Of a stretch of DNA of 32,000 nucleotides, positions 1,891-28,300 are shown piece by piece. The notes below the pieces were generated by a model, which saw only the letters and a list, made by a program, of their open reading frames with translations, was not told the origin of the DNA and did not search any database. Each line of letters starts with the position of its first letter. Positions within the stretch are counted from its first letter, which is position 1. The stretch spans positions 186,348-218,347 of the forward strand of contig NZ_BSDI01000004.1 in assembly GCF_027923225.1 (NCBI RefSeq). The letters are read 5' to 3'. This DNA comes from Phytohabitans aurantiacus (GTDB taxonomy: Bacteria; Actinomycetota; Actinomycetes; Mycobacteriales; Micromonosporaceae). Made by a program: the position numbers and the translations under genes.

Positions 1891-1904
1891 TGGGAGCGCT
1901 CCCG
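1891..1904. promoter_or_regulatory. CelR/CebR-type cellulase operator (near-perfect 14-bp palindrome TGGGAGCGCTCCCG)
   Basis: The sequence tgggagcgctcccg lies 30 bp upstream of the GH12 ATG. It matches 13 of 14 positions of the TGGGAGCGCTCCCA inverted repeat known as the LacI-family CelR/CebR binding site upstream of actinomycete cellulase genes. An AAGGAG RBS sits at 1922-1927. Confidence 0.6.
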
Positions 1905-1933
1905 TCATCCCACCACGTTGCAAGGAGCACCCC

Positions 1934-3067: not shown

Positions 3068-3073
3068 TTCAAG

Positions 3074-3125
3074 TGATCAGGGCGTCCCTCAAGTCGTTAG
3101 AACAGCTTGAGGGACGCCCTGATCA
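3074..3125 (+). terminator. Perfect 20-bp stem / 12-nt loop hairpin immediately after the GH12 stop (intrinsic-terminator candidate)
   Basis: tgatcagggcgtccctcaag (3074-3093) is the exact reverse complement of cttgagggacgccctgatca (3106-3125). It starts 7 nt after the stop codon. There is no clear U-tract, which is common in actinomycetes. Confidence 0.6.
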
Positions 3126-3161
3126 TGCTGCGGAACGTCGGGGTGTGCGCACAATGGAGTC

Positions 3162-11260: not shown

Positions 11261-11312
11261 CGCGACCTCCTGTGACGGAGGACACCAGTCAACGACATGT
11301 CAAGGACGCGTG

Positions 11313-11972: not shown

Positions 11973-11979
11973 ATATGTC

Positions 11980-12624: not shown

Positions 12625-12828
12625 AACCTAGCCGCTAACTGATCACTAAAGAGATCACAGTCATTACAAGTGGCACAATGATTGTCTTCTCGAAGTCTTT
12701 CATGGCCGACACCTCACCCTATACTCCCTTTAAGCGTCTCGCTGACGGAGCGCTTCGCCGGCGCGGTTCGTGATCATAGCCGCCTACGCGACGGCAGATG
12801 CGAATCCGCGTCCTGGGTCGGAGGTGCG

Positions 12829-14043: not shown

Positions 14044-14081
14044 TCGAGATCGCGAGGTCCACCACCTGAGGAGGCCCGGCC

Positions 14082-17000
14082 GTGACCGCACGCGCAACCG
14101 CCTCGCCAGCCGACTCCGCACCGGCCGGCGGCACCATCATCACCTTTTACTCGTACAAGGGTGGCACCGGGCGCACCATGGCCATGGCCAACGTCGCGTG
14201 GATTCTCGCCAGCAACGGCCTGCGCGTGCTCATTGTCGACTGGGACCTGGAGTCGCCTGGCCTTCACAAGTACTTCCACCCCTTCCTCACTGACAAAGAC
14301 CTGCGCGCCTCCGCCGGTGTCATCGACATGATCCGCGGTCACGCGGAGGCGATGATGCGGCCGATACACGACACCGAGACCACGCAGTGGTTGGAGACCC
14401 ACGCCGACGTGCTGTCCTACGTCCTCCCCGTGGAATGGTCCTTCCGGGACAAGGGATTCATCGAGCTGCTGCCGGCCGGCCAACAGGACAGTTCCTATAC
14501 CGAGACGGTGCGGACGTTCGACTGGACGGCCTTCTATGAACGCCTGGCCGGAAACGCCTTTCTGGAGGCTTTGGCCCGCAACATGCGCGCCAACTACGAC
14601 TACATCCTCATCGACAGCCGCACCGGAGTGAGCGACGCCGCGGGCATCTGCACCGTCCTACTTCCGGACTCTGTCGTGGATTGCTTCACCATGAACGCGC
14701 AGAGCATCGACGGCGCGGTCGCTATCGCTCACTCCATCGTCCGTCAGCGGGTCGAGCGACCGGTGCGGATACTGCCGGTGCCCATGCGCGTCGAGGATGC
14801 CGAACAGGTCAAGTTGGACGCCGGTCGCGATCACGCTCGGCAGAACTTCGCGCCCTTCCTGGGACGCGACCCGGAGGAGGTCAACCGGTACTGGGGTGAC
14901 ATCGAGATCCCCTACAAGTCCTTCTATGCCTACGAGGAGATACTCGCTCCGTTCGGCGACCGGTCACACCAGGAAGGATCGCTCCTTGCCGCGTACGAAC
15001 GGCTGACCCGGATCATCACCAGGAGCCAGGTGCAGCAGGTCGACGCGATCGAAGAGCGGGTACGCCGCCGGTGGCTGGCTGCGTTCGAACGCCGCCGCAC
15101 CGCCGGCGCGCTGGACATCTTCATCAGTTACGCGGCCGTCGACCGAATGTGGGCGGAATGGATCGCCGGGGAGGCGAACGACGCCGGCCTCCGAGCGAGT
15201 ATGCGGGAGATCGACTCCCAGCCGTTCCCCGAGCCGGGCAACGATCCGCCGAGCTTCCTGAGCAACACCAGCCGCGCGATCGTGCTGCTCAGCGAGGATT
15301 ACATCGCGTCGGTGAAGTCGGCCACGACGTGGAAGACCCTCGCGGCTCGCGAGCCCGTGGGCGGTCGCCCGTTCATCGTTCCGCTCCGTCTGGACAACGT
15401 GCGCCTGGAGGCGCCGTTCGACGAGCACATACCCATCGACCTCAGCGGACTGCACGAGCAGCGAGCCATCGACGTCGTACGCGAGGCGCTCCAGCAGCCC
15501 GTATACCCGCGATCCGCGACGCCGACCGAACCAGACGCACCGCGACGCCGCTTCCCTGCGACAGAGCCCCCACTGTGGAGCGTTCCCCAGCGCAACGGCA
15601 CGTTCACGGGCCGGCGACGTGCGTTGGAGGCGCTGCGCAACCGGATGGCTGCGTCTGGCTCGATGGCGAATCCTCAGGCGCTCCACGGCCTTGGCGGCGT
15701 CGGAAAGACCCAGATCGCCCTCGAATACGCGCACCGCTTCAAGGCGGACTACGACATCGTCTGGTGGGTCTCGGCTCAGCAGACGAGCCTCGTGCGCGCC
15801 TCGCTGTCGAACCTCGCGGATGCGCTCGGTCGACGCGCGGGCGAGAGCGTGACGGAACGGATCCGGTCCGCGCTAGAGGCGCTCCGGCAAGGTGTCCCGT
15901 ATCGACGCTGGCTGATCATCTTCGACAACGCGGACGATCCCGACGAGCTTCGCGAGTACGTGCCTCAGGGGCATGGCCACGTCCTGGTCACCACCCGGGA
16001 CAACGCCTGGTCACGCGTGGCGCAGATGGTGGACATCGGCGTGTTCGGACGCGAGGAGAGCGTGGCTCTCCTCCAGCGCCGGATTCCCAATCTTCCCACC
16101 GCCGACGCGGAGACGGTCGCGGAGCGGCTGGGCGACCTGCCACTCGCCATCGAGCAGGCTGGTGCCTGGCTTGCAGCGACAGCGATGCCGGTGTCCCACT
16201 ACCTCGAACTGCTCGAAACGCAACCCCTCCGGATGTTGGAGGAGGACCTACCGTCCGACTACCAGCAGAGCGCGGCCCAGCCATGGCTCGTCTCGCTCGA
16301 CAGCCTGCGCCAGCGCAGTCCCGCCGCCGCCAAGTTGCTGGAGGTGTGCGCGTTCTTCGCTTCCGAACCAATCCCAATCTCACTGCTCTACAGTGACCGC
16401 TTCATCAGCATGCTTCTCCCGTTCGACCCCTCGTTACGCGAGCGAATGCTGATGGCCAAGGCGATCAGAGAGATCAGCCGGTACGCGCTCGCACGCGTCG
16501 ACACGGGTAGACCAGCTGTTGGATCACAGCGCCGGGCGAGCGACCGGAGTGACGAGGGTGGGCAGAGTATCCAACTGCACCGTCTCATGCAGGCCGTCAT
16601 CCGCGCGCGACTCAGTCCCGACGAGCGTGACGAGAACCGCAAGCACGTCCATGAGATCCTGGCAGCCGCCAATCCGGACGGCCCCGACGAGCCTGAGAAC
16701 TGGCCAACCTACGCCGAGCTGTGGCCACACCTGCTGCCGTCCAAGACGCTCGACTCGGACCTGCCGGACGTCCGGCAACTCGTCTACGACATGTGTCGCT
16801 ACATGTGGAAGAGCTACGACTACCCGACCAGCCAATTCCTTGCCGAGCAGGCCGTCGAGAAGTGGGAGGAGGCATTCGGCGCCGATGACCCGCTCACCCT
16901 CATGATGCGCTTCAACCTGGCCACCGCCCTTCGCCTCCAGGCCAACTACACGCCTGCCTACGAGATCGACCGGGACATCTATGCCCGGCTCGGTCGTGTC

Positions 17001-18089
17001 GTCGGCGAGGACCATCCATACACGCTGATGGCGGGCGGCAACCTTGCCGCCGACCTACGCGCCCGCGGTGAGTTGCACGAGGCGCACAGGCTCGATGAGG
17101 CGATCGAGGCGCGGTGGCGGGAGACCTTCGGCGACGACTATCCACGCACCCTGATCGCGGGACACAACCTCGCGGTCTCACTCCGCCTCATCGGCAACCT
17201 GCAGGACGCGCTGCGGCTTCAGGAACGGATCCTGCGACTCCGCCGCGCGGTGCACGGCGATCAGCATCCGTACACGCTGTACTCGTCCAGCAACTACGGA
17301 CGGGATCTGCGCGACACGGGCGATCTGCGGGAGTCGCACCGCGTACTTGAGACTGCGTTGGAACGGCACCGGCGTGTGCTCGGCGAGGATCATCCGGAGA
17401 CCCTCCGGACGGCGAAGAACCTCGCGGTGACGCTACGCAAGCTGGGCGAGTTCGAGCGGGCGCACGCACTGAGCGCCGAAACCCTGGAAGGGTCGCAAAG
17501 GCTGTTCGGTCCTCACCACCCCGACACCCTGGCGTGCGGCATGAACCTCGCCTGCGACGAAGCGGCTCTCGGCCACGACCGGAACGCACGACGACGCGCC
17601 ACACCCATCGTCGACCTCTCCCGCCAGACCGGCGGCGAAAACCACTTTGCCACCTTGGCCTACGCCAACAACCTGGCGATCTTCATGCGTAAGACCGGTG
17701 ACGCCGCCGGCGCACACAGCATCACGACCGATGTGATCAACCGTTTTATGGCGACGGTCGGCCACGAACATCCCTACACACTCGCTGCCCTGCTCAACAA
17801 CGGCAACGACGACTACGACCTGGGCAACTATGCCGAGGCCCGGTCGTCCGACGAACGCGCCTACGCGGAGTTCACGCGGGTCCTGGGGCCCGAGCATCCG
17901 GACACGCTGGCGGCCGCCAGCAATCTCGTGGCCAGCCGCAGGGCCGATGGCGATCCGGGCGCGGCACGCGAACTGTTGGCCGGGATACTGAACACCTACG
18001 ATCGCGTGCTAGGTGCGCACCACCCCAATACCATCGCCGCGCGGGAAGGTCGCCGGCTCAGCTGCGATCTGGAACCACCACCTACCTGA
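14082..18089 (+). CDS. fxsD: FxsD-type multidomain STAND protein: variant ParA/MinD-like ATPase (KGGTGRT) + TIR-like domain + NB-ARC NTPase + C-terminal TPR array
   Basis: 1335 aa. Residues 17-330 read IITFYSYKGGTGRTMAMANVAWILASNGLRVLIVDWDLESPGL...ILIDSRTG.SD, a ParA/MinD fold with Arg in place of the P-loop Lys. Residues 344-460 read LDIFISYAAVDRMWAEWIAGE...AIVLLSEDYIAS (TIR-like). Residues 505-700 read FTGRR..L..L......GLGGVGKTQIALEYAHR...YDIVWWV......LIIFDNADD....VLVTTRD......GDLPLAIEQAGAWL (NB-ARC Walker A/B, RNBS, GLPL). Residues ~900-1320 hold about ten TPR_10/12-type repeats (..GEDHPYTL....NLA..LR..G....A..L). Confidence 0.85.
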   Translation: MTARATASPADSAPAGGTIITFYSYKGGTGRTMAMANVAWILASNGLRVLIVDWDLESPGLHKYFHPFLTDKDLRASAGVIDMIRGHAEAMMRPIHDTETTQWLETHADVLSYVLPVEWSFRDKGFIELLPAGQQDSSYTETVRTFDWTAFYERLAGNAFLEALARNMRANYDYILIDSRTGVSDAAGICTVLLPDSVVDCFTMNAQSIDGAVAIAHSIVRQRVERPVRILPVPMRVEDAEQVKLDAGRDHARQNFAPFLGRDPEEVNRYWGDIEIPYKSFYAYEEILAPFGDRSHQEGSLLAAYERLTRIITRSQVQQVDAIEERVRRRWLAAFERRRTAGALDIFISYAAVDRMWAEWIAGEANDAGLRASMREIDSQPFPEPGNDPPSFLSNTSRAIVLLSEDYIASVKSATTWKTLAAREPVGGRPFIVPLRLDNVRLEAPFDEHIPIDLSGLHEQRAIDVVREALQQPVYPRSATPTEPDAPRRRFPATEPPLWSVPQRNGTFTGRRRALEALRNRMAASGSMANPQALHGLGGVGKTQIALEYAHRFKADYDIVWWVSAQQTSLVRASLSNLADALGRRAGESVTERIRSALEALRQGVPYRRWLIIFDNADDPDELREYVPQGHGHVLVTTRDNAWSRVAQMVDIGVFGREESVALLQRRIPNLPTADAETVAERLGDLPLAIEQAGAWLAATAMPVSHYLELLETQPLRMLEEDLPSDYQQSAAQPWLVSLDSLRQRSPAAAKLLEVCAFFASEPIPISLLYSDRFISMLLPFDPSLRERMLMAKAIREISRYALARVDTGRPAVGSQRRASDRSDEGGQSIQLHRLMQAVIRARLSPDERDENRKHVHEILAAANPDGPDEPENWPTYAELWPHLLPSKTLDSDLPDVRQLVYDMCRYMWKSYDYPTSQFLAEQAVEKWEEAFGADDPLTLMMRFNLATALRLQANYTPAYEIDRDIYARLGRVVGEDHPYTLMAGGNLAADLRARGELHEAHRLDEAIEARWRETFGDDYPRTLIAGHNLAVSLRLIGNLQDALRLQERILRLRRAVHGDQHPYTLYSSSNYGRDLRDTGDLRESHRVLETALERHRRVLGEDHPETLRTAKNLAVTLRKLGEFERAHALSAETLEGSQRLFGPHHPDTLACGMNLACDEAALGHDRNARRRATPIVDLSRQTGGENHFATLAYANNLAIFMRKTGDAAGAHSITTDVINRFMATVGHEHPYTLAALLNNGNDDYDLGNYAEARSSDERAYAEFTRVLGPEHPDTLAAASNLVASRRADGDPGAARELLAGILNTYDRVLGAHHPNTIAAREGRRLSCDLEPPPT

Positions 18090-18093
18090 CCCG

Positions 18094-19848
18094 TCAAACC
18101 GCCAGACACTCCACTGGCTCCAGCCAGGTCGCAAGCTCCAAAGGGTCGACCGTCCCGTCGCCCGTGCCGCTGAGTTCGCGATGGACCGCCATGCAGAGCT
18201 CCGGAAAGCGCAGTCGGGGGGCGTCGGGATCGCGTTGGCAGGCGAGAGCCAGCCCGATCCACGCGTCCACGCGATCGGTCGCCACGATCTCGGCCGCGTA
18301 CGCCCGACGCGCCGCGGGCAGATCACCCGCCGCCAACGCAATGTCGCCAACCGTCGCGTTCTCCCCCGCGGACAGCGCGGCGAACCGCGCGGGCTCGACG
18401 ATCCGCAACCGAGCCAGATCCAGGCGGGCGCTGCGCGTCAGCATCCGCCCGGCGCGCACCGTTTCCGTCGGCACCGGATCGCGAGGGCAGGGCATGCTCG
18501 CCTGCCAGGCAGACGCCAACCGCCGCACGGCGGCCGTCTCCGGCAGCCGGTTCCGTAGCTGCCAACCCACCCTGTGGTCGTCGGCGGCCTCCGCCGCCAT
18601 CGCCACAGTCACGGCATCGGCTGCCTCCTGCTGCCACGGCGATTGCGCGGCCCGCATCCCAGCAAGGAATTCCAGACCCAAGGACGTGAAGCGCCCCGAC
18701 GCTTCGAGGATGTCGAGCGTCCGCCACACGCGATCCCGCCAGCGTACGAACTCGACCTGGGCGAGCTGGCCGGGCCCTTCGGTCAGCAACCGCCGCTGCA
18801 CCCGCCAGAAATCCACGACACCGTGGAAGGCATACGCGCCTTGCAACAAAGCGCCGAGCGGACGGGGATCGTCGCGCCAGGGCGCATAGTGCCGTGGCCG
18901 GTCGTCCCTCTCGTACAGCGGCTGTATGTCGAGCAGCCCGCCGAGCTTCGCGTGCTGGAACTCGTGCAACAAGCCCAAGGCGAGCGCACGGCCGTTGACG
19001 GGCGGCGTCAGCGACACCGCCCCGAACGCCTCCATGCTCGTGACGTTCATGCCGTGATCGGGCCGCTCGCTGTGCAGCGGGACGATCGTCGTCAGGCCCG
19101 CGGCGATCGCCTCGGCGTACGAGCGGTGGTGCTCCACCAGAATGGGCCACGCGTCGTCCAAGAGCCGCTGCCAATGGCGGATGTCATCGTCGCTCAGCCG
19201 TCCCTCGGCGCCTAGTTGGTGGCAGTCGCGAAACGGATCGACATCGTCCACGGACAGCTCGATGCGCAGATCGGTGGCGGCACAGCGCAGGCGACGGACT
19301 GCCTGCCAGCCGCCCGCACTGTGCTCGATATGTTCCGGTACGACCACGGTCCCCAGCTGAGTGCGCCCGCCGATGTGCTCCAGACTGGCGGTGTGCGCAT
19401 CACCCAGGATCGCACGCCCGAGCCCCGGCAGGGTGACGCTGCCGCCGTACACCTTGACCTCGAACTTCGCGTCGACACCCGCCGTCATGGCGGCCACGAG
19501 CGCGACGCCGGCCATGTATTCGAGGCGTGCTTCCAGGCCGCCTTGGGCCTCGGATCCACCGCGGACCGCGCGCAGTGTGGCCGTCAACCACGCGCCAACA
19601 TGCGGCTGGAGCAGCAGTAGGCGTACGGCGGCCGGGGACCGGCGCTCGGCCGCCACCAGCACGTCGAAGTACTCGGCGATTCTGGCCGACCGCGCAGCGG
19701 CCACCAGCTGGCCGAGCATCAGTTGTCGCCTGCTCACCTGCGCGGCGCGGAGTCTGCCCACGATCCGGCCATCGCCGAGGCCGCTGGCAAGGGCCGCGAA
19801 GTCGGCGCTATCGAGGCGATGCGTCGTTTCCGGCGTCAGGAGTTCCAT
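18094..19848 (-). CDS. HExxH-motif protein of the Fxs system (putative peptide-modifying metalloenzyme; this family has been assigned as 2-oxoglutarate-dependent peptide beta-hydroxylases)
   Basis: The motif LGLLHEFQHAKLGGLLD has its HEFQH codons at 18952-18966. The N-terminus MELLTPETTHRLDSADFAALASGLGDGRIVGRLRAAQVSRRQLML looks like the conserved start of HEXXH-domain partners of FxsB. I chose the ATG at 19848. The track start at 19998 would overlap fxsB by 190 nt and adds a low-complexity, non-homologous stretch. Confidence 0.8.
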   Translation of the reverse strand: MELLTPETTHRLDSADFAALASGLGDGRIVGRLRAAQVSRRQLMLGQLVAAARSARIAEYFDVLVAAERRSPAAVRLLLLQPHVGAWLTATLRAVRGGSEAQGGLEARLEYMAGVALVAAMTAGVDAKFEVKVYGGSVTLPGLGRAILGDAHTASLEHIGGRTQLGTVVVPEHIEHSAGGWQAVRRLRCAATDLRIELSVDDVDPFRDCHQLGAEGRLSDDDIRHWQRLLDDAWPILVEHHRSYAEAIAAGLTTIVPLHSERPDHGMNVTSMEAFGAVSLTPPVNGRALALGLLHEFQHAKLGGLLDIQPLYERDDRPRHYAPWRDDPRPLGALLQGAYAFHGVVDFWRVQRRLLTEGPGQLAQVEFVRWRDRVWRTLDILEASGRFTSLGLEFLAGMRAAQSPWQQEAADAVTVAMAAEAADDHRVGWQLRNRLPETAAVRRLASAWQASMPCPRDPVPTETVRAGRMLTRSARLDLARLRIVEPARFAALSAGENATVGDIALAAGDLPAARRAYAAEIVATDRVDAWIGLALACQRDPDAPRLRFPELCMAVHRELSGTGDGTVDPLELATWLEPVECLAV

Positions 19849-21031
19849 CTTGGAGTCGTCCTTTGAGTACAGCGGCAAGATCGGCGTGAACGCGAGGAAG
19901 CACGTGACGAATGAGGCGACCAAGGTCAGCGCAGTAGACCGATGGATTACGGAAGCCCGTCTCCGCACGGTACCGGTGCGGATAGTAGCCGCCACCACAT
20001 ATCCGATGCAGCGGACAGGCCAGACAATCGTCGGAAAGTGCGTCTAGGCCGATCTGCCGGTCTTGGATCTCGGGGTGCTCCAGCACCTCGTCAAGGCTGT
20101 GGTCGAAGACGTTCATGCCGGTGTCGACAGCGCCTGGATACGTGGACCGCAGGGTGTCGATCTGCTCGTACGCGCCGTCGACGTCCACGACGACGGTCGC
20201 CACGGGGCTGAGGCCGATCGTCTCGATGCGGCTTGTGCCGCCCAGCGCTAGGCTGATTACTTCTTCGAAGAATCGAACGCGCGTTTCCCGAACTGGCGCG
20301 TCGTACCAACGATCGAAGGCGGCCACCAGCCAGTCGCCGTAGAGCGTGTCCCCCGCCGACCATCGCGGCGGAGGACTCGTCCAGTTCCCGTGCGGCAGCA
20401 GAAAGTCGATGGCGGGCGGATCATACTGGAGCAGACTGTCGAATGTAGATACCGGGTCGTTGTCCAGGTCGATGACGCTGAGGATGCCAGCGAAGTGTTC
20501 CGGACGAAGGCGCAACGAGCGCAGTGCCCGGTCCACCGCATCGAAGGAACTGCGACCGTTGGCGTACCGCCGATGCCGGTCGTTCGCCCGGCGGTCTCCG
20601 TCCAGGCTTACGCCGATGCGGATGCCTGCCTGGCACAAGCGATCGATCACGCGGTCGTCGAGCAGGACGCCGTTGGTCTGGACTGTGATGTCCACAATGG
20701 CCTGTGGTGCGACGGCGGCACGCACCCGGTCGGAAGCGCGCACAAGAGCGTCCACACCGACCATCATGGGCTCACCGCCGTGCAGCACGACCCGAAGCGG
20801 TCGCCCCGTATCGCCGACATGGTCGGCAATCCGTTCGCATACCCGATCTAGCACGCGGTCCGACATGGCCGAATTGACCTGTCGCCAAGCCGTGTCGGCC
20901 AGTTCGTACATGTAGCAGTAGTCGCAAGCCAGGTTGCACCGGGTGTGGAGCTTGAGCACGAACTCACGGAACGGCGTCCGCCGACGGTCGTGGGCTCGGA
21001 CCAGTGGCACAGCTACATGGCCGAGTTCCAA
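19808..21031 (-). CDS. fxsB: FxsB-family radical SAM / SPASM peptide maturase (cyclophane-forming)
   Basis: PFREFVLKLHTRCNLACDYCYMYE carries the CxxxCxxC radical-SAM cluster (codons at 20915-20938), and VVLHGGEPMM follows. The C-terminal SPASM-like Cys cluster reads DDCLACPLHRICGGGYYPHRY....G..NPSVYC. The start is either the TTG at 21031 (19-nt overlap with fxsA) or the GTG at 21010 (2 nt after the fxsA stop). Confidence 0.85.
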   Translation of the reverse strand: MELGHVAVPLVRAHDRRRTPFREFVLKLHTRCNLACDYCYMYELADTAWRQVNSAMSDRVLDRVCERIADHVGDTGRPLRVVLHGGEPMMVGVDALVRASDRVRAAVAPQAIVDITVQTNGVLLDDRVIDRLCQAGIRIGVSLDGDRRANDRHRRYANGRSSFDAVDRALRSLRLRPEHFAGILSVIDLDNDPVSTFDSLLQYDPPAIDFLLPHGNWTSPPPRWSAGDTLYGDWLVAAFDRWYDAPVRETRVRFFEEVISLALGGTSRIETIGLSPVATVVVDVDGAYEQIDTLRSTYPGAVDTGMNVFDHSLDEVLEHPEIQDRQIGLDALSDDCLACPLHRICGGGYYPHRYRAETGFRNPSVYCADLGRLIRHVLPRVHADLAAVLKGRLQDGTPDAGNDASPR

Positions 21032-21183
21032 CCAGCGACCGCGTCCTGCGGCCGGTCAATATCTTCTAGGATCCGGCGCAGGGAATGAGCGACGACTGAA
21101 CCGCCCAGCCTGGATAAGTCAGACAGACTGAGACCACTCAGATCAACCAGCTCAGGCTGGTTGTCATCAACCGTTGCATCCAC
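21013..21183 (-). CDS. fxsA: FxSxx-COOH-family RiPP precursor peptide (56 aa, C-terminus WNSAM), not in the supplied ORF track
   Basis: My translation of the minus strand from the GTG at 21183 gives MDATVDDNQPELVDLSGLSLSDLSRLGGSVVAHSLRRILEDIDRPQDAVAGWNSAM* with a TAG stop at 21015-21013. An in-frame TAA lies 4 codons upstream, so this GTG is the first possible start. An AAGGG RBS lies 6 nt upstream. The ORF sits immediately 5' of fxsB, and the last five residues fit aromatic-x-S-x-x-COOH. Confidence 0.75.
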   Translation of the reverse strand: MDATVDDNQPELVDLSGLSLSDLSRLGGSVVAHSLRRILEDIDRPQDAVAGWNSAM

Positions 21184-21454
21184 CCGGGGCCCTTACTAGT
21201 CGCAAACATTAAATAGTTGTTCGCGCCGGGGCCCGCAGAGGGCCTGCGGTGGCGCCGCTTGACATTAGCACTTCAAGCCGTCGCGCGCGCCATTTTAGCA
21301 CCCGATCGATGACCGCGCCACTGGGCCATTTGCACCAATGCACCCAATCGGCCGCCGAACGGGGAATAGCAGACAGGCGCCATTACAGATCACGGTCGTT
21401 CCGTTGCATACTGCTATCATCACGCCCGCATCGGATGCGACCCGGAGCGTTGCC

Positions 21455-23185
21455 GTGGCCCAGCCGAACGACCCGACCCAGCATCGTCCCGCCATCAACG
21501 CGCTCAGGCTCGGAATCACCGTGACGGCAGTCGTGTCCCTCCTGCTCGGCTATCTGGGACTGGACGCGTTCCTCAGCGGCTCTGATCAATACGGAAATAG
21601 GCCGATCGACCTCCTGTACTACGACGTCCAACTCTTCGTCCTGGGTGCCGACCCGCTCCAGCAACCCGGTCCCTACCCCTTGCTCCTTGAGATAGCTCGC
21701 CTGACAGCACCGCTGGCGACCATCACCGCTCTCGTGGAGGCGGCGCGGCTGCTCTTCGCCACCGAACTGCGAAGACTCCGCGCCCGGCGTGCTCGCGGTC
21801 ACGTCATCGTGTGCGGCGACACCTCGCTGGCCGGAATCCTCTCCCGCCGTCTCCATGCCGCTGGCCGGCGAGTCGTTCACGTACGAGCACAAGCCGAAGC
21901 CGTCCCGCCGAGTCCGTCGTATCCATTGATCGTGGTTGGCGACGCCCGGGACGCGGGCACCCTGACCGCCGCGGGGCTGAGCCGCGCCACCGCCCTGTAC
22001 GCCTGCGCGCACGAAAGCGCGACCAACATCGCCATCGGCCTGGCTGCTGGCCGTGAACGCCGCCTCCAGGGGCCGTCGCTGCCGATCTATACGCATGTGC
22101 CAGACCCGGACCTGTGCCTTACCCTGCAGGCCAGGTATCTCGGACTGCCGAATCCGCCCGGGGCTCGGCTCGACTTTTTCAACGTCGACGATCTGGCGGC
22201 CCGCAAGGTATTTCTGGAAGATCCGCTCGAGCCGGAGGTCAGGCCCCGGCAGTACATCCTGGTGGCTGGAACGACGCCGTTCGGACAAGCGCTCGCTGTG
22301 GAGGCTGCCCGCCATTGGCGACGAAGGCTCGCTCCGGATCCGAGTACCCGCCTCCGCATCGCGATCGTGGCCAGGAACGCCACCGAGACGCTCGCCAATC
22401 TCGCCCACCGCTATCCGTTTCTTCGACTCTCCTGTCGTCTCGACGCATACGACGCCGACCTCGTGGACATCCTGGCCACCGAGCTGGATGAGGCGCCCGA
22501 CCGCGCCTACATCTGTTACGCCAACGAAGAACGCGCCCTGAAAGCGGCACTTACCGCAGACCGGTACTGGCGAGGACGGAAGAACTGTGTCGTAGTGCGA
22601 CTGGACCAGCTCGCGGATTTCTCCGACGACGGTGGACTCGCCAGCCAGCTGCTCGACGACGGCCCTGCGCGGCTGCGGGTGTACGGCGTTCTGCGCGCCG
22701 CCTGCGATCCCGGGATGATCGCCGAAGATCTCGTGGAGCGCTTGGCTCGCGTCATCCACGACCGCTACCTGGTCGCGCGTCGCTCGCACGGCCAAGCCGA
22801 CAACTCCAGCCCGTCGATCGTTTCGTGGGAACGGTTGCCGCCGGAGCTGCGGCAGACCAACCGGGCACAGGCGGAGGACATCGGGCGGAAGTTGAGGGCC
22901 ATCGGTTATGTGCTCGTGCCACGGATGCGTGAGTCAGCAGATGAGGAAAGCATGAACGAGAACGAGATCGAACGGCTGGCGATGATGGAGCACGAACGGT
23001 GGTGCCTCGACCGCTTGGCGGCGGGTTGGCGCTACGGCGAGCGCCGTGATGACATCCGCAAGCTGCATCCGGCGCTTTGCGATTGGAGCAATCTCCCGCC
23101 GGACATCCGGGAGCGCAACCACGACGCCGTGCGAGAGGTACCTCTGATCCTCTCGGACGCCGGCTTCCAGCTGGTTCGGATCTGA
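21455..23185 (+). CDS. Membrane-associated protein with two Rossmann (TrkA-N-like NAD-binding) domains and two C-terminal RyR (ryanodine-receptor-type) domains
   Basis: The hydrophobic N-terminus reads LRLGITVTAVVSLLLGYLGLDAFL. Rossmann beta1-loop motifs are GHVIVCGDTSLAGILSRRLHAAGRRVVHV and QYILVAGTTPFGQALAVEAA. Two RyR repeats occupy ~22724-23182: ERLARVIHDRYLVARR......SIVSWERLPPELRQTNRAQAEDIGRKLRAIGYVL and ERLAMMEHERWCLDRLAAGWRYGERRDDIRKLHPALCDWSNLPPDIRERNHDAVREVPLILSDAGFQL. I prefer the GTG at 21455 (GGAG RBS 7 nt upstream) over the track ATG at 21338. Confidence 0.75.
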   Translation: MAQPNDPTQHRPAINALRLGITVTAVVSLLLGYLGLDAFLSGSDQYGNRPIDLLYYDVQLFVLGADPLQQPGPYPLLLEIARLTAPLATITALVEAARLLFATELRRLRARRARGHVIVCGDTSLAGILSRRLHAAGRRVVHVRAQAEAVPPSPSYPLIVVGDARDAGTLTAAGLSRATALYACAHESATNIAIGLAAGRERRLQGPSLPIYTHVPDPDLCLTLQARYLGLPNPPGARLDFFNVDDLAARKVFLEDPLEPEVRPRQYILVAGTTPFGQALAVEAARHWRRRLAPDPSTRLRIAIVARNATETLANLAHRYPFLRLSCRLDAYDADLVDILATELDEAPDRAYICYANEERALKAALTADRYWRGRKNCVVVRLDQLADFSDDGGLASQLLDDGPARLRVYGVLRAACDPGMIAEDLVERLARVIHDRYLVARRSHGQADNSSPSIVSWERLPPELRQTNRAQAEDIGRKLRAIGYVLVPRMRESADEESMNENEIERLAMMEHERWCLDRLAAGWRYGERRDDIRKLHPALCDWSNLPPDIRERNHDAVREVPLILSDAGFQLVRI

Positions 23186-23194
23186 GGAAAACCC

Positions 23195-23677
23195 ATGGTC
23201 ACGATCGGCGTCACAGGGCACGTCCATCTGAGCGAAGCCTCGGAGCAATTGATCTTCGATGCGGTGCTGGAAGCCACACGTTACTTCGCCTCCGAGAGGC
23301 CACACGGCATCACCTGCCTCGCGCGCGGCGCCGATCAAATCTTCGCCCGCGCAATGGTGGCTCTAGGCGGCACGTTCGAGGTGGTGCTGCCGGCACGCGA
23401 CTATCGCCGGCGCATTATCACGGCCGAGGAACGCCAGAACTTCGATCTGTTGATGGAGCAAGCCAGCAGGGTACGCGTTATGCACGCCCGGCGGTCGGGG
23501 CGGCCCGCGTACGTCGCGGCGAGCAGGTACATGTTGAACCGATCGACAGTGCTGTTCGCCGTCTGGGATGGGCAACCGACCAAAGGCCCGGGAGACACCG
23601 CTCACGTCGTATCGCTGGCGGAGGAGCGCGGCCTGCCGGTGAAGGTGTTGTGGCCGGCTGGGGCCGGCCGCCGGTAA
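23195..23677 (+). CDS. Small SLOG-superfamily (DprA / LOG / YpsA / DUF2493-like Rossmannoid) protein
   Basis: 160 aa: MVTIGVTGHVHLSE...ITCLARGADQIFARAMVALGGTFEVVLPA......SRYMLNRSTVLFAVWDGQPTKGPGDTAHVVSLAEERGLPVKVLWP. It has the SLOG hallmarks: a Gly-rich loop after beta1, GxARGxD, and a late WDG....G.T..V..A...G.PV motif. It starts 9 nt after the RyR gene stop, with a GAGGA RBS 6 nt upstream. Confidence 0.65.
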   Translation: MVTIGVTGHVHLSEASEQLIFDAVLEATRYFASERPHGITCLARGADQIFARAMVALGGTFEVVLPARDYRRRIITAEERQNFDLLMEQASRVRVMHARRSGRPAYVAASRYMLNRSTVLFAVWDGQPTKGPGDTAHVVSLAEERGLPVKVLWPAGAGRR

Positions 23678-23715
23678 ACGGTGAATCGCAGCTGGGTCGG
23701 GATAGCGTTGAGCCC

Positions 23716-24495
23716 ATGGCTTTGATCCTGATCACGGGGGCTTCGGATGGATTGGGGCGCGCGCTCGCCGTAGCGCTCGCCGAGCAGGGCCACCATCTCC
23801 TCCTCCACGGACGAAACGCGGCGCGCCTGTCTGAGGTCGCCGCGCAGACCGGCGCCACGCCCATCCGGGCCGACCTGTCGTCGCTGGCAGAGGTACGGCG
23901 GCTGGCCGATGCCGTGCCGGAGGGGCTCGACGTACTCGTCAACAACGCGGGCGTCGGCTTCGGCGCGCCCGGTGCCGGCCGCGAACTCTCCGCGGACGGG
24001 TACGAGCTGCGCCTCGCCGTCAACTACCTGGCTCCGTACCTGCTGACCAAGCTGCTGCTGCCTCGCATGGCGCGCGAGACGCCGGCCCGGATCGTCAACG
24101 TGGCGTCCGTTGGCCAGCGCCCGTTCGACCTGGCCGACCCGATGCTGGAACGCGGCTACGACGGTGTCGAGGCGTACCGCCGGTCGAAGCTGGCGCTGAT
24201 CGCACACACCTTCGACCTGGCCGAGGAGCTGGCGGGCACCCTGATCACGGCGAACTGCCTGCATCCCGCCTCGCTGATGCCGACGACGATGGTGCGCCAG
24301 GCCGGCTGGGGCGAGATCGACACGCTGGAGAAGGGGCTGCGGGCCACCCTCCGGCTGGTCGTAGACCGGGACCTGACCGAGGTCACCGGCCGGTACTTCG
24401 ACGGCGAGCGGGAGGCACGGGCGCTCGACCAGGCGTACGACCCGGAGTTCCGCAAGCAACTGCGCGAACTCACCGAATCTCTGATAGGCAGATAG
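23716..24495 (+). CDS. SDR-family oxidoreductase
   Basis: From the ATG at 23716: MALILITGASDGLGRALAVALAEQGHHLLLHGRN...LDVLVNNAGV...NVASVG.....YRRSK.AL. This contains TGxxxGxG, NNAG and YxxxK. The upstream part of track ORF 23077..24495 is an artefactual extension across the SLOG gene. Confidence 0.85.
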   Translation: MALILITGASDGLGRALAVALAEQGHHLLLHGRNAARLSEVAAQTGATPIRADLSSLAEVRRLADAVPEGLDVLVNNAGVGFGAPGAGRELSADGYELRLAVNYLAPYLLTKLLLPRMARETPARIVNVASVGQRPFDLADPMLERGYDGVEAYRRSKLALIAHTFDLAEELAGTLITANCLHPASLMPTTMVRQAGWGEIDTLEKGLRATLRLVVDRDLTEVTGRYFDGEREARALDQAYDPEFRKQLRELTESLIGR

Positions 24496-24497
24496 CT

Positions 24498-24872
24498 ATG
24501 CCTAGCTTCACGCTGTCCGGTGTCGTGCTCGGCGCGCCGAAGGCCCGCGACCTCGCCGACTTCTACCACCGGCTGCTCGGCTGGCCGTTCGGCGACGACG
24601 ATGACGACTGGTCGACGCTGATCCCGCCCGACGGCGGGACGAAGCTGTCGTTCCAGACCGAGGTCGGCCACGTGCCTCCGGTGTGGCCGGCCGGCCCCGA
24701 CGACCAGCAGATGATGCTGCACCTCGACATCCGGGTCGACGACCTGGAGACGGCGGGCGCGCACGCGGTGTCCTGCGGTGCGGTACTGGCGCAGTTCCAG
24801 CCGCAGAAGGACGTGCGGGTGTATCTCGACCCGGCCGGCCACCCGTTCTGCCTGTTCCTCCCGGGCGCCTAG
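24498..24872 (+). CDS. VOC (glyoxalase/bleomycin-resistance/dioxygenase) family protein
   Basis: 124 aa: MPSFTLSGVVLGAPKARDLADFYHRLLGWPF......HLDIRVDDLE.A.A.....GA........VRVYLDPAGHPFCLF. This is a typical single VOC module. It starts 2 nt after the SDR stop. Confidence 0.8.
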   Translation: MPSFTLSGVVLGAPKARDLADFYHRLLGWPFGDDDDDWSTLIPPDGGTKLSFQTEVGHVPPVWPAGPDDQQMMLHLDIRVDDLETAGAHAVSCGAVLAQFQPQKDVRVYLDPAGHPFCLFLPGA

Positions 24873-25265: not shown

Positions 25266-25342
25266 GAGCCCGGTGTTACCCAGCTCCACCGCTGCTCATG
25301 CCTCGCCCACTATGGTGTAGGCGTGCCAGCACGAGGACCGCT

Positions 25343-26362
25343 GTGATTCACCTACCCACCGCAGCACGGGGACCACTCCGGGCACTCGCGCTGCGCCTGG
25401 TCGCCGCCATCGGACTGGTCCTCTTCATCGTCTTCGTGGTCTATCTCGACCGAGACGGATATCGTGACGGCGACGACACGAGCGGTTTGACCCTGCTCGA
25501 CTGCTTCTACTACACGGTGGTGTCGCTGTCGACCACCGGTTACGGCGACATCACGCCAATCACGCCCCAGGCCCGGCTGGTAAACGTCCTCGTGGTCACG
25601 CCGGCACGAGTACTGTTTCTGATCATCCTGGTCGGCACCACACTCGAGGTGCTGACCGAGCAGTACCGGACCAACGCACGCCTCGCGCGGTGGAGAAGGC
25701 ATTTGAAGGACCACGTCATCGTCTGCGGGTACGGGACGAAAGGGCGCAGCGCCGTGGGCGCACTGCGCGAGAGCGGCTTCGACGTCAAGCGCATCGTCGT
25801 GGTCGAGTCGGACCGCCCGTCGGTGCGGCGAGCCGCCGCCGACGGCCTGGTCGCCATCGAGGGATCGGCAACCCAGTCGACCGTGCTGACGGACGCGCAC
25901 ATCAAGGACGCCAAGGCGGTCATTGTCGCGACCGACACCGACGAGGCTTCGGTACTGGTCACCCTGACCGCGCGGCAGCTCACGGCCGGCAAGGTGCGCA
26001 TCATCGCGGCGGCTCGGGAGGCGGAGAACGCACCGCTGCTCAAGCAGAGCGGCGCTCACCAGGTGATCGTCTCGTCGGCGACGGCCGGGCGCCTGCTGGG
26101 CCTCTCGACGTCGGCGCCGCCGCTCATCGACGTCGTCGAAGACCTGCTGACCCCGGGCGCGGGCATGGCGCTCGCGCTGCGCTCGGCGGCCCGCGACGAG
26201 GTGGGGCGCTCGCCGCGCGAGGTGACCGAGCCGGTCATCGCGCTGGTGCGGCTGGGCCGGATCATCTCGCTGGCCATGCCCGAAAGCGCCAAGATCGAGA
26301 CTGGTGACCTGCTGGTCTACATCCGCGACGACCGCCCGAGCCCGGTGACCGCCTCAGCCTGA
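25343..26362 (+). CDS. Two-TM K+ channel with cytoplasmic TrkA-N/TrkA-C (RCK) gating domains
   Basis: The pore and selectivity filter read DCFYYTVVSLSTTGYGDITP, flanked by TM helices LRLVAAIGLVLFIVFVVYL and VLVVTPARVLFLIILVGTTL. RCK-N is HVIVCGYGTKGRSAVGALRESGFDVKRIVVVE, and an RCK-C-like tail follows. I prefer the GTG at 25343 (GAGGA RBS 5 nt upstream). The track ATG at 25298 is the alternative. Confidence 0.8.
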   Translation: MIHLPTAARGPLRALALRLVAAIGLVLFIVFVVYLDRDGYRDGDDTSGLTLLDCFYYTVVSLSTTGYGDITPITPQARLVNVLVVTPARVLFLIILVGTTLEVLTEQYRTNARLARWRRHLKDHVIVCGYGTKGRSAVGALRESGFDVKRIVVVESDRPSVRRAAADGLVAIEGSATQSTVLTDAHIKDAKAVIVATDTDEASVLVTLTARQLTAGKVRIIAAAREAENAPLLKQSGAHQVIVSSATAGRLLGLSTSAPPLIDVVEDLLTPGAGMALALRSAARDEVGRSPREVTEPVIALVRLGRIISLAMPESAKIETGDLLVYIRDDRPSPVTASA

Positions 26363-28300
26363 CCCTCGGCGGCCTCGCCGGGCGCGGATGTAGTCGGCCA
26401 CGACGTATCGGCTGAGGTCTTCCGCGTCGGGGGTGAAGACCCGGCCGCCTGAGCGCTTCGCCACCGCGTCGACGAACCGGCGCAGCGCCTCGTCTTCGCC
26501 GAGCATGAAGAGGTTGAGCGTGGCGCCGTACCGCGTCAGGTGGTCGACCTCCGTGATCGTCGCCTCGACCGTCTCGCGCAGGGGCGGCCAGAAGAAGACC
26601 GCCTCGCCGTCGGCTTCGAGGTGGGCGGTCGGCTCGCCGTCGGTCACCACCAGCACGACCGGCTCGGAGCCGGAGTGCTTGCGCAGGTGCCGGCCGGCCA
26701 GCTTGAGCGCGTGGTGCAGGTTGGTGCCCTGCACGTAGTCGGGCTCGACGGCGGCCAGCTCGGTCGGAGACAGCGGCATCGCGTACCGGCCAAAGCCGAT
26801 GATCTGCAGCGCGTCCTGCGGAAACTTCGTGGCGACCAGATGCGACAGCGCGAGCGCGGTCTGCTTCATGGGCCCCCAGCGGCCATCGGCGGCCATCGAG
26901 AACGACAGGTCGACGCAGAGCGCCACCGCGGCTGACGCCCGACGCTCGGTCTCGACCACCTCGAAGTCGTCGACGGTCAGCTCGACCGGCACCATCTCAC
27001 CGCGACGGCGTACCGCGTTGCCGACCGTTCGCACCACGTCGATCGGCTGCTCGTCGCCGTACGCCCACGCCCGCGACGCGCCGGTGATCTCGCCAGCCGC
27101 CCCCGCGTCGCGCAGGTCGTGCTCGCCGCGCCGCCGGCCGGACAGGTCGGCGAACACGGTACGCAGAGCCGTGGCACCGAGCCGGCGTAGCGCCTTGGGG
27201 CTCAGCGTCAGCCCATCGGCGCCCCGAGTCACCCAGCCCTGCCGGCGCAGCTCCCGCTCCAGCTCCTGGAGCCGGCGCACGTCGGCCGCCGCGTCACGCC
27301 CCAGGACGCGCTCGACCGACTCCACGTCGACGTCGTCGAGGGTGGCGCCCGGATGCTCCTGGCCCAGCTGGTCGAGCAGGTCGTCGAGGTCACCGATCTC
27401 CGCCAGGGCGCCCGCCGCCTCGCCGTACCCGAGCCCCTCCCGGCCGCGGACCTGAGCCCGCCGATCCCATGCCAGGTCGGGCCGGAGCGTCCGGAGGTTC
27501 GCCGTCAGGCGCGCCATCTCTCCGGCGAGGCCGGCGTTGCCGAGCGCCTGCGCCATGAGCCGCGACAGTTCCTCCTGCTGCTGCGGCGACAGGGAACGCA
27601 TCAGGCGCTCGGCGGCAGCCGCCCGGCGGGCGAGCGCGTCGATCAGCTCGTCGACCGTGGCCGGTTTCTCGGGGAAGAAGTCGCCGTGCCGCCGCATGAA
27701 CTCGGCGAACGTGTCGGTGGTGTCCTCGCCCCGGGCGTGCCGGTCGAGCAGGTCGTTGAGGTCGCGGAGCATCTCGGCCATCCGCTGCTGCGCGGCCGGG
27801 TCGCTGAGCCCTTCGCGGAGGCCGGCGAACCGCTGCTCCAGTACCTCGTCGCGGAGCCCGTCGAGGATCTGCTGGTACAGGGCGCGGGCCTCGTCGCTGG
27901 CCCACTCGTAGTCGGACAGCTCCTCGACGGCTCGCGCGGTAGACCGGGGCAGGTTGTCGAGGCGTGCCTCGGCGAACCGCGCGTCGTCGCCCGGGCGGCC
28001 GGACAGCTCGTCGCGCTCGGCGGCGAGCGCCTGGTCGAGCAGCGCCTGGGATCGGGTGACCGCGCCGTCGAGGTTGCCCCGGCGCATCGCCTCTCGCCGC
28101 AGCCGCCGGGCGCGGGCGGCCAGCTCGTCGAGGCCGCGACCGCCGTCGGGGCCGCGCCGGAGCAGGTTGCGCAGCGCGTCGCGCAGGCTGCCGCCGCCGA
28201 GCACCTCGGAGCCGACCCGGTCGACCGCGGCGCGCACGTCGTACGGCGGCGCGAGCGGGTCGGGCCCACCACGCCACGCGCCGTACCGGTACCGGTTCAT
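26354..28300 (-). CDS. von Willebrand factor A (VWA) domain protein, partner of the upstream AAA+ ATPase
   Basis: From the ATG at 28300: MNRYRYGAWRGGPDPLAPPYDVRAAVDRVGSEVL... A long helical Arg/Glu/Leu-rich middle region follows. The C-terminal VWA domain has a MIDAS motif (ALCVDLSFSM...TNLHHAL......VVLVVTDGEPTAH). The ATG overlaps the ATPase stop (ATGA at 28297-28300). The first 377 aa of track ORF 26354..29431 are an out-of-frame artefact. Confidence 0.8.
   Translation of the reverse strand: MNRYRYGAWRGGPDPLAPPYDVRAAVDRVGSEVLGGGSLRDALRNLLRRGPDGGRGLDELAARARRLRREAMRRGNLDGAVTRSQALLDQALAAERDELSGRPGDDARFAEARLDNLPRSTARAVEELSDYEWASDEARALYQQILDGLRDEVLEQRFAGLREGLSDPAAQQRMAEMLRDLNDLLDRHARGEDTTDTFAEFMRRHGDFFPEKPATVDELIDALARRAAAAERLMRSLSPQQQEELSRLMAQALGNAGLAGEMARLTANLRTLRPDLAWDRRAQVRGREGLGYGEAAGALAEIGDLDDLLDQLGQEHPGATLDDVDVESVERVLGRDAAADVRRLQELERELRRQGWVTRGADGLTLSPKALRRLGATALRTVFADLSGRRRGEHDLRDAGAAGEITGASRAWAYGDEQPIDVVRTVGNAVRRRGEMVPVELTVDDFEVVETERRASAAVALCVDLSFSMAADGRWGPMKQTALALSHLVATKFPQDALQIIGFGRYAMPLSPTELAAVEPDYVQGTNLHHALKLAGRHLRKHSGSEPVVLVVTDGEPTAHLEADGEAVFFWPPLRETVEATITEVDHLTRYGATLNLFMLGEDEALRRFVDAVAKRSGGRVFTPDAEDLSRYVVADYIRARRGRRGSG

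Follow-up and report, generated by a model that had tools for sequence, protein, structure and literature searches.

A predicted SLOG protein and a channel-like RCK-RyR membrane protein form a conserved gene pair linked to Fxs loci of actinomycetes

The window analysed here, a stretch of 32,000 nucleotides from the genome of Phytohabitans aurantiacus, contains two adjacent genes, hereafter A and B, which encode a channel-like membrane protein with predicted RCK and RyR domains and a small cytosolic protein predicted to have the SLOG fold, respectively. They lie beside a complete Fxs set (genes for FxsA, FxsB, FxsC, FxsT, and the aKG-HExxH hydroxylase), and comparative genomics places the A-B pair as an optional accessory module of Fxs: the two genes are conserved as neighbours, occur as natural fusions, and are linked to Fxs genes in many different ways, and in other Fxs loci the membrane component is replaced by a SLATT protein. 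We propose, with moderate confidence, that A and B form one functional unit, a nucleotide-regulated, channel-like membrane output that would serve in many actinomycetes as an accessory effector arm of Fxs systems. The logic of a TIR-linked SLOG sensor with a membrane effector is already known; the novelty lies in the type of effector, in the B family, and in assigning A-B (or SLOG-SLATT) to Fxs as an accessory arm.

Conservation of the gene pair and its linkage to Fxs loci

An earlier note on this DNA had made its proposal depend on A and B being neighbours in other genomes, and this is what was found. A scan of one genome per species returned at least 568 relatives of B, and the best 80 loci formed the B-centred survey; in 48 of these 80 loci, the gene next to B on its upstream side is a co-oriented A, with an intergenic distance of 9–161 nt (median, ~42 nt). 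Two natural fusions were also identified, namely P0257, an A-linker-B protein of 759 aa that is encoded on a 513-kb contig of a metagenome-assembled genome and is also present in a Logan assembly, and P0258, a partial JGI entry of different sequence. A distant analogue is encoded at 9208–13564 (+) of locus L082, where the gene for a 263-aa protein with a filterless two-transmembrane-helix (2TM) module and a TrkA_N domain lies 1 nt upstream of that for a 1187-aa protein; the latter comprises an N-terminal domain, an ATPase of the AAA/nSTAND5-like type, and a tandem of two B-like SLOG domains. This contig is metagenomic, with a GC content of 65%, and the neighbouring genes look non-actinobacterial. 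The hosts of the B family are all filamentous, multicellular actinomycetes.

In 17 of the 80 loci, B lies directly downstream not of A but of a gene for a ~490-aa NsdA-family regulator with helix-turn-helix (HTH) and TPR domains (NF053720, 213 bits against a cutoff of 75). Since this regulator takes the place of A, B can be regarded as a portable core with an exchangeable partner. The NsdA-family gene ends just before B in L028, L037, L038, L043, L050, L056, L057, L067, L069, L073, L074, L076, and L079, and in the Nocardiopsis and Nonomuraea (L074) loci a gene for a PCMT-like methyltransferase (~385–570 aa) is divergent from it. Other neighbours of A-B are STAND proteins: outside Fxs loci, a DUF4062-NACHT-HEAT protein was found in 8 Micromonospora loci and a SARP-NB-ARC-TPR protein in 3 loci, and a NACHT/BrxD-like ATPase together with an FxsT-like gene neighbours the pair in 6 loci. 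The DUF4062-NACHT-HEAT protein (1420 aa) is encoded upstream of A-B on the same strand (L039, L045, L053, L054, L058, L061, L063, and L065; ~3846–8114 in L061), with a shorter opposite-strand open reading frame (ORF) intervening in 5 of the 8 loci, and it has a weak, sub-threshold likeness to the antiphage NACHT protein EruA.

The earlier note had also raised the possibility that the pair is enriched next to Fxs or other TIR loci, and the enrichment proved to be strong. In the B-centred survey, fxsB is present in 12 of the 80 loci and an FxsT-like gene in 6 more. An FxsC-centred survey of metagenomes covered 80 loci, 35 of which were at least 12 kb long; A was found in 11 and B or a B-like gene in 14 of the 80, and A and/or B in 13 of the 35 long loci. 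By a rough estimate, based on a handful of Fxs loci in a genome of 8–10 Mb, a random 20-kb window would overlap an Fxs locus in less than ~2% of cases.

At least 10 distinct arrangements link A and B to Fxs genes. In the window, L001, L029, and Dactylosporangium loci, fxsB or fxsT is divergent from A. The order A, B, fxsC, and fxsT on a single strand is present in L008, L088, L089, L110, L128, and L131, whereas an A-B pair divergent from fxsC is found in L094-96 and one convergent with fxsC and fxsT in L085. Fxs clusters occupy both sides of A-B in L020 and L029, an A-B fusion in L081 is followed by the HExxH gene and then by fxsT and fxsC on the opposite strand, and A follows fxsT in the same direction in L162. 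In L025 (Rhizocola), A and B are apart and flank the Fxs cluster. The two are interleaved with it in L086/L087, where B, fxsA, fxsB, the HExxH gene, A, fxsC, and fxsT follow one another in this order and are all co-directional. FxsC directly adjoins A or B in L088, L089, L094-96, L110, L128, and L131. All four components of the NCBIfam Fxs system (FxsA, FxsB/FxsBH, FxsC, and FxsT) stand beside A-B in the window, whereas A or B is present in only about one-third of the long Fxs loci sampled and A-B also occurs without Fxs; none of the Fxs-specific NCBIfam models matches A or B. Beside the interleaved operon of L086 lie a gene (1–3193, minus strand) for a 1213-aa protein with TPR and ADP-ribosylglycohydrolase domains, a hint of ADP-ribose chemistry around Fxs, and an unannotated gene for a 246-aa product (3337–4077, plus strand).

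In Streptomyces-type Fxs loci (L124, L127, L129, L151, L154, and L163), a gene for a B-like SLOG protein (32–37% identical to B) is convergent with the gene for a 309-aa 2TM protein, which stands in place of A, and the two are located just upstream of fxsB (5641–7053 in L129). We detected 320 homologues of the 309-aa protein (NCBI name, DUF4231), which carry PF18181, PF18184, and PF14015, the SLATT families; those with a named source organism come from Streptomyces and Kitasatospora. SLATT proteins are membrane effectors that accompany SLOG and SMODS proteins in predicted nucleotide-centred conflict systems. Because a SLATT protein pairs with the B-like SLOG protein in these Fxs loci, A can be placed in the position of the membrane effector. 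Neither A nor its homologues have a Pfam match to SLATT, and A is therefore an analogue of this family rather than a member.

Predicted architecture of proteins A and B

The fold of B was assignable by structure comparison alone. B has no match in Pfam, NCBIfam, or PADLOC, a search of its profile against PDB sequences gave chance matches only (E above 1), and sequence profiles thus yielded nothing usable. More than 120 close homologues of 155–190 aa were found in Actinomycetota, none with a Pfam domain, and an exhaustive profile search returned 237, 4246, and 8944 clusters at E ≤ 1e-30, E ≤ 1e-10, and E ≤ 1e-3, respectively. The best PDB match of the AlphaFold2 (AF2) model of B (pLDDT 93.7, pTM 0.89) in Foldseek is YpsA (2nx2; E 8e-9, TM-score 0.81), followed by several DprA entries, the Shosta defence protein ShosA, TM1055, the MoCo carrier protein, and LOG; the top PDB matches are SLOG proteins throughout. 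The SLOG domain of ThsA bound to 3' cyclic ADP-ribose (3'cADPR) is a weak match (7uxs, E 4e-3), and viral SLOG proteins match the model equally well. Judged from this model, B is a member of the SLOG superfamily with its Rossmannoid three-layer alpha/beta fold, as the earlier note had supposed.

The SLOG hallmarks on which that supposition was based (T7-G8-H9, G45-x-D47, and W124-D-G126...T135) are kept across 34 homologues. Invariant positions in these homologues are T7-G8-H9, G38, C41-L-A43, G45-x-D47, P66, D69-Y70, Y106, A122, W124, G126, and W153-P154, and D125 is kept in at least 90%. T7-G8-H9 forms the loop after beta1, and a second glycine-rich/threonine loop comprises W124-D-G126...G133-x-T135. 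The invariant G45-A-D47 (nt 23327–23335) corresponds to the GxD/E signature, which marks the predicted ligand site of the YpsA clade (G53/E55 in Bacillus subtilis YpsA; PMC6459960). The Pfam model YpsA (PF06908) does not match B and gives only sub-threshold matches in 3 of the 34 homologues (best E, 0.0014); because it fails the gathering score, B is best described as a YpsA-like SLOG family for which there is no profile model. B. subtilis YpsA, the founder of the clade, resembles B in fold, signature, and size, but is only 14% identical to it and is found in the context of gpsB and cell division in Firmicutes, in contrast to the association of B with A, NsdA, SLATT, and Fxs. Of the SLOG clades, it is the YpsA-like one to which cADPR sensors have been ascribed (PMC9503650).

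The AF2 model of A (pLDDT 84.5, pTM 0.80) and profile comparisons indicate a 2TM module that is probably derived from a K+ channel and lacks the K+ filter, followed by tandem RCK domains and a C-terminal domain resembling Repeat12 of ryanodine receptors (Table 1). The hydrophobic N-terminus, the two Rossmann domains, and the two RyR domains described in the earlier note are thus present; the pore-like nature of the N-terminus, with a short helix between two long ones, had gone unnoticed. In the model, the long helix spans aa 12–42, the short helix aa 50–63, and the third, very long helix (aa 76–112) enters the first Rossmann domain. The short, pore-helix-like helix reads DLLYYDVQLFVLG (nt 21602–21643), and its residues D52, Y55, Q59, L60, and F61 are invariant in 38 homologues. 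Alignment of A with the canonical K+ channel encoded further downstream in the window (hhalign, 94% probability) runs unbroken from the pore helix through TM2 to RCK1, the RCK part supplying much of the score, and sets the consensus DLLYYDLQLFVLGxxPLxxGGPxP of A opposite LDCFYYTVVSLSTTGYGDITP of the channel. The place of the TxGYG filter is occupied in A by the loop ADPLQQPGPYP. Since the filter is absent in all 38 homologues, the aligned segment being VLGADPLQQPGPYP (consensus VLGxxPLxxGGPxP), classification of A as a K+ channel is not warranted; the label given to many of its homologues by JGI is 'Kch'.

Matches to TrkA_N (best E, 3e-18) and to the RyR domain were obtained in 38/38 homologues, while the second Rossmann domain is invisible to Pfam. 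In Foldseek, A aligns over ~390 columns (E ~1e-7) with the tandem-RCK proteins TrkA (4j9u, 4j9v, and 4g65) and GsuK (4gx0 and 4gx1), the GsuK matches including full-length chains, and MthK is also matched. The C-terminus matches Bt-hRyR (6uhi) and Repeat12 of human RyR3 (6uhb and 6uhh, ATP complex; 9l9b, ADP complex) with TMt values of 0.5–0.64; the Repeat12 structures matched were solved with ATP, ADP, or dantrolene.

Proposed function and alternative explanations

From the partners of B and its predicted fold, we infer that B would bind a small nucleotide, most likely an NAD-derived product of the TIR domains of FxsC and FxsT, and would dock on A or regulate it. A, in turn, would be a filterless 2TM pore gated by a tandem-RCK ring and equipped with a Repeat12-like, adenine-nucleotide-binding domain. 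Its opening would permit non-selective ion flux or depolarisation, with arrested growth or the death of a cell or a hyphal compartment as the outcome. In a bolder version, which we consider doubtful, Fxs would be more than a cluster for peptide biosynthesis, namely a complete signalling pathway in which the cyclophane peptide and the STAND-TPR sensor control the TIR domains, B reads the NAD-derived product, and the filterless cation channel A is opened.

Thoeris systems provide a close parallel, since they join TIR proteins to a SLOG sensor, to a membrane or ion-channel effector, or to both. Type I consists of the TIR protein ThsB and the SLOG-SIR2 protein ThsA, type VII combines a TIR protein with SLATT, a verified effector that responds to canonical cADPR, and type X combines a TIR protein with the ion-channel effector ThsK, for which the signal is not known; precedents therefore exist for TIR with SLOG, for TIR with SLATT (cADPR signal), and for TIR with ion-channel effectors (bioRxiv 10.64898/2025.12.03.692087). 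FxsC keeps the S..S..C..E catalytic-Glu motif of TIR domains, with C79 and E82 invariant in the FxsC alignment, and B weakly matches the SLOG domain of ThsA, as described above. Differences are also evident. The proposed sensor and effector are usually separate proteins in A-B, and the place of SIR2 or SLATT is taken by a Kch-like predicted pore that lacks the filter and bears RCK and RyR domains. The TIR domains, carried by FxsC and a STAND-TPR protein, belong to a radical-SAM peptide cluster and not to an operon of two genes, and TrkA, RyR, and radical SAM are not mentioned in the Thoeris preprint (bioRxiv 10.64898/2025.12.03.692087). SLOG-SLATT modules, described as 'nucleotide-centric conflict systems' (Burroughs et al. 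2015, as cited in PMC6459960), likewise place a small SLOG protein beside a 2TM membrane effector. This exact pairing is present in the Streptomyces-type Fxs loci, whereas the membrane partner in the window is predicted to be a pore of K+-channel origin that carries a tandem-RCK ring as well as RyR repeats.

In its predicted architecture, A shares the order of 2TM, pore helix, TM2, and tandem RCK with RCK-gated proteins such as GsuK, TrkA/TrkH, and MthK. GsuK is a dual-RCK channel whose RCK domains bind nucleotides and which is activated by ADP and NAD+ (PMC3510474), and CASTOR/DMI1 is an RCK-gated Ca2+ channel with a non-K+ filter, an example of an altered-filter pore that can conduct other cations (PMC6697748). 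A differs from these channels in having neither TxGYG nor Ion_trans_2, in its degenerate RCK1 glycine loop, and in its additional C-terminal RyR pair and obligatory SLOG partner. With respect to eukaryotes, the N-terminal SLOG/MHR1-2 domain of TRPM2 binds ADP-ribose (ADPR), and Repeat12 of the ryanodine receptor, which is itself cADPR-responsive, binds adenine nucleotides. A-B similarly combines a cation-channel-type protein, SLOG, and RyR repeats, and a link to NAD-derived signals is plausible. The likeness is one of domain combination only, the pore of A being of the Kch type and not of the TRP or RyR type. The earlier note had stated that no experimentally characterised system has this composition. 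The literature that was searched agrees: a search for SLOG with RyR, RyR with TrkA, and SLOG with TrkA/RCK returned no relevant paper, although an earlier mention in Burroughs et al. 2015 is possible.

If the bolder version is correct, A-B would represent a bacterial channel in which a SLOG module like that of TRPM2 is united with a nucleotide-binding repeat like that of ryanodine receptors; ADPR/cADPR-gated cation channels would then have a prokaryotic counterpart or even an evolutionary source. The SLOG, RCK, and RyR modules around a single pore would offer a tractable route to the origin of nucleotide gating (TRPM2/ADPR; RyR/cADPR and adenine nucleotides). The proposed function would also carry the Thoeris-like logic of TIR signal, SLOG sensor, and membrane effector over to an effector of a new type and to actinomycetes, which are multicellular, and provide a concrete, testable output for Fxs; this gene set is common among actinomycetes, and interest in it has until now centred on its radical-SAM peptide chemistry. 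The YpsA-like SLOG family and the filterless Kch-RCK-RyR membrane protein are two families that lack models in profile libraries and defence catalogues.

Several findings weigh against the proposed function. The loci are phylogenetically clustered, and related genomes inflate the figures, so that raw counts overstate the number of independent events; the argument is carried by how many different arrangements there are. Neither an Fxs nor a TIR gene lies within 10 kb of about 60% of A-B pairs, and in 16 loci the pair resides in a stable, housekeeping-like synteny with aminopeptidase P and asparagine synthase. Phytohabitans suffuscus (L083/L084) has A-B at the same chromosomal site. Its left flank shows synteny with that of the window (M24 peptidase, 92% identical; HTH-cupin protein, 76%) and its right flank differs; A-B (51% and 48% identical) follows straight after the HTH-cupin gene, and the Fxs cluster is absent. 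The NsdA-B loci (Nocardiopsis, Amycolatopsis, Gandjariella, and others) have neither A nor Fxs nearby, and for this reason the ligand of B need not be a TIR product. The apparent fusion of B to FxsC in P0245, which is encoded after A and in which the two FxsC models score above cutoff, would favour the link to Fxs but is represented by a single metagenomic contig of 9 kb and could reflect read-through or a gene-calling artefact. As for A, a match to Ion_trans_2 or another pore family was obtained in 0/38 homologues, and the loop that lacks the filter may be unable to conduct ions. The glycine loop of RCK1 is degenerate (CGDTSLAG; consensus CGDGxVA) rather than GxGxxG, and beta2 ends in V-R-A/S, i.e. 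with Arg and without Asp/Glu. Because of this loop and the missing acidic residue, NAD(H) binding by A is unproven, and the NAD(H)-binding label attached to the Rossmann domains in the earlier note is not secured by the motifs. Lastly, none of A, B, and FxsC is represented by a PADLOC model, which also sets them apart from Thoeris.

Among the alternatives, the roles of the two proteins may be reversed, B being a LOG/YpsA-type nucleotide N-glycosidase or processing enzyme that makes, trims, or destroys a signal, for instance through breakdown of a TIR product so that the system is reset, and the RCK and RyR domains of A being the sensors. SLOG clades do include true enzymes, as the LOG structures among the Foldseek matches of B illustrate, viral YpsA-like SLOG proteins have been proposed to degrade cADPR-type signals (PMC9503650), and A itself has up to three potential nucleotide-binding modules. 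Furthermore, the polar residues H9, D47, D69, Y70, Y106, and D125 are conserved around the predicted pocket of B. The nearest structural relatives of B, namely YpsA, DprA, and the SLOG domain of ThsA, are however binders and not known enzymes, and B fused at the C-terminus of A, like the B-like domains that end an AAA/STAND protein, looks like a sensor or adaptor domain. The catalytic motif of LOG is PGGxGTxxE; it is absent from B, where the stretch reads G-P-G-D-T-A-H-V-V (family consensus GDTADVV, or G-D/G-T-A-x-V-V) with no conserved Glu after the Thr. We regard an enzymatic B as unlikely.

In Streptomyces, NsdA represses differentiation and the production of antibiotics, and the 17 loci in which B directly follows an NsdA-family gene, together with the filamentous hosts, could be explained if B were a general nucleotide-sensing adaptor in development, with a membrane (A) or transcriptional (NsdA-family) output; the link to Fxs would then reflect developmental control instead of conflict or immunity. 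YpsA itself affects cell division (PMC6459960). On the other hand, TIR, STAND, and SLATT partners are hallmarks of conflict systems (PMC7159879). Patchy occurrence and an atypical GC content point the same way, and we consider a purely developmental adaptor rather unlikely. It also overlaps with the effector-arm proposal, since programmed death of a compartment may belong to development and to defence alike.

RCK/TrkA_N proteins are in most cases regulators of K+ transport, and A-B might be an ordinary ion-homeostasis or osmoregulation device, i.e. an RCK-regulated transporter subunit with an accessory protein, brought next to Fxs through variable, horizontally exchanged regions. The 'Kch' labels, the canonical K+ channel 1.6 kb downstream of B, the aminopeptidase-P synteny, and the P. 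suffuscus locus without Fxs are all in keeping with this. Against it, the K+ filter is absent from 38/38 homologues in spite of the invariant pore helix, and Fxs linkage in so many arrangements, including interleaving within a co-directional operon and flanking of the cluster by A and B, contrasts with the rough chance expectation given above. In addition, the other neighbours of A-B are STAND NTPases (DUF4062-NACHT-HEAT and NACHT-like proteins in 8 and 6 loci, respectively), and SLATT substitutes for A in other Fxs loci. Together these points make a homeostatic role quite improbable.

Finally, A-B might act on the peptide side of Fxs, in the biosynthesis of a peptide that is made on the ribosome and modified after translation (RiPP), with A as an exporter or self-immunity protein for modified FxsA and B as a tailoring enzyme that adds or removes, e.g. 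an ADP-ribosyl or nucleotidyl group. A is divergent from fxsA in the window and lies between the HExxH and fxsC genes in L086, where the ADP-ribosylglycohydrolase protein adjoins the cluster, and a triceptide RiPP is ADP-ribosylated during its biosynthesis (PMC12912966), which is a chemical precedent only, the mic cluster involved having been rejected as an Fxs locus because it is a different cluster. This role is very unlikely, as A has no ABC/MFS or peptidase features and B pairs with A, SLATT, or NsdA regulators in loci that have no precursor peptide. More generally, we know of no 2TM channel-like fold with a cytosolic RCK ring that acts as a peptide exporter, nor of a SLOG fold that acts as a peptide-modifying enzyme.

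Gene layout and surroundings of the pair in the window

Table 1. Coordinates of A, B, and neighbouring features in the window
Feature	Position	Strand	Description and basis
fxsC	12682..14043	+	TIR-like; NCBIfam FxsC_Nterm and FxsC_Cterm, both above cutoff
fxsT	14082..18089	+	KGGVGR-AAA, TIR, NB-ARC, and TPR STAND protein; NCBIfam NF040586, 1012 bits; Pfam TIR_2, NB-ARC, TPR
aKG-HExxH peptide beta-hydroxylase gene	18094..19998 (upper limit of ORF)	-	NCBIfam TIGR04267, 160.7 bits
fxsB	19808..21031	-	Cyclophane-forming radical SAM/SPASM maturase; NCBIfam TIGR04269, 450 bits (cutoff 370)
fxsA	21013..21183	-	56-aa precursor peptide, C-terminus ...AGWNSAM
Divergent intergenic region fxsA/A	21184..21454	.	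271 bp
Gene A	21455..23185	+	576-aa membrane protein: predicted 2TM pore-like module, tandem RCK/Rossmann domains, RyR repeat pair
TM1, pore-helix-like helix, loop, TM2	21488..21790	+	A aa 12-112; secondary structure of AF2 model, hhalign
RCK1 (TrkA_N) Rossmann domain	21800..22219	+	A aa 116-255; Pfam TrkA_N, 29.3 bits (cutoff 23.8), E 1e-6
Second Rossmann-like (RCK2-like) domain	22253..22684	+	A aa 267-410; strand/helix pattern, Foldseek
RyR repeat pair, RyR Repeat12-like	22730..23179	+	A aa 426-575; Pfam RyR, 59 bits (cutoff 27.4), two stretches, E 5e-16
A-B junction	23183..23197	+	Stop codon TGA of A overlaps GAGGAA (Shine-Dalgarno sequence of B), followed by ATG of B
Gene B	23195..23677	+	160-aa cytosolic protein, predicted SLOG fold, YpsA-like clade
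Short-chain dehydrogenase gene	23716..24495	+	Begins 38 nt past the stop codon of B
Canonical K+ channel gene	25298..26362	+	Ion_trans_2 and TrkA_N; TTGYGD filter
Gene for 1025-aa protein	26354..29431	-	C-terminal VWA domain
Subtilase gene	29770..31701	-	643 aa, FG-GAP repeats

Both genes of the pair are present as the earlier note had described them, co-oriented on the plus strand with 9 nt between the stop codon of A and the ATG of B; the sequence across the junction is tGAGGAAaacccATG, and no terminator-like site was found between the two genes. The ORF of A extends at most over 21338..23185, and with the start given in the earlier note, a GTG at 21455 that follows GGAG, the product has 576 aa and matches the NCBI entry 'RyR domain-containing protein [Phytohabitans aurantiacus]' with 100% identity. 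The GC contents at codon positions 1, 2, and 3 are of the coding type in both genes (A, 0.73/0.48/0.77; B, 0.67/0.50/0.80). Comparison of B with a Micromonospora ortholog that is 88% identical revealed 50 synonymous and 19 non-synonymous differences in 161 codons, indicating purifying selection on B. The fxsA-A intergenic region has no sigma-70 consensus match and only weak repeats, and terminator-like sites around the pair are not more frequent than in shuffled sequence.

The divergence of A from fxsA and the presence of TIR genes within 10 kb, both pointed out in the earlier note, also hold: fxsC and fxsT lie 3.4–9 kb upstream of A-B, with fxsC 7.4 kb away. The product of fxsA is 59% identical to an L086 peptide bearing PF27839 (FxSxx-COOH), and its C-terminus is a W-x-S-x-x-COOH variant of the FxSxx-COOH motif. 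The stop-proximal end of fxsA shares 19 nt with the upstream extension of the fxsB ORF. The HExxH and fxsB ORFs overlap, and a frameshifted FxsBH fusion was considered and ruled out: because the alignments of HExxH homologues begin at ORF residue ~56–62 (tblastn), these are two adjacent genes, and the true start of the HExxH gene is probably at about 19820. Residues 17–206 of FxsT (14082–14700, plus strand), the KGGVGR-type AAA domain, match the PADLOC candidate defence protein PDC-M28B (E 5e-23); apart from this, PADLOC gave just a generic radical-SAM/viperin match for FxsB in the Fxs locus.

The GC content of the window ranges from 0.64 to 0.75. The region from ~12000 to 24500, which comprises the Fxs genes, A, and B, has a GC content of 0.64–0.67 and a GC content at third codon positions (GC3) of 0.76–0.83, in contrast to 0.69–0.75 and ~0.9, respectively, in the flanking metabolic genes. 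The short-chain dehydrogenase gene downstream of B also follows B in L001, L039, and L047 (the last without A), which may be coincidence; given its recurrence in only three loci, it was dropped as a candidate member of the module. The canonical K+ channel gene is also syntenic in Micromonospora sp. CPCC 206061 (L001), as is the gene for the 1025-aa VWA protein, which has no PADLOC match, and the gene for the subtilase with FG-GAP repeats lies beyond it.

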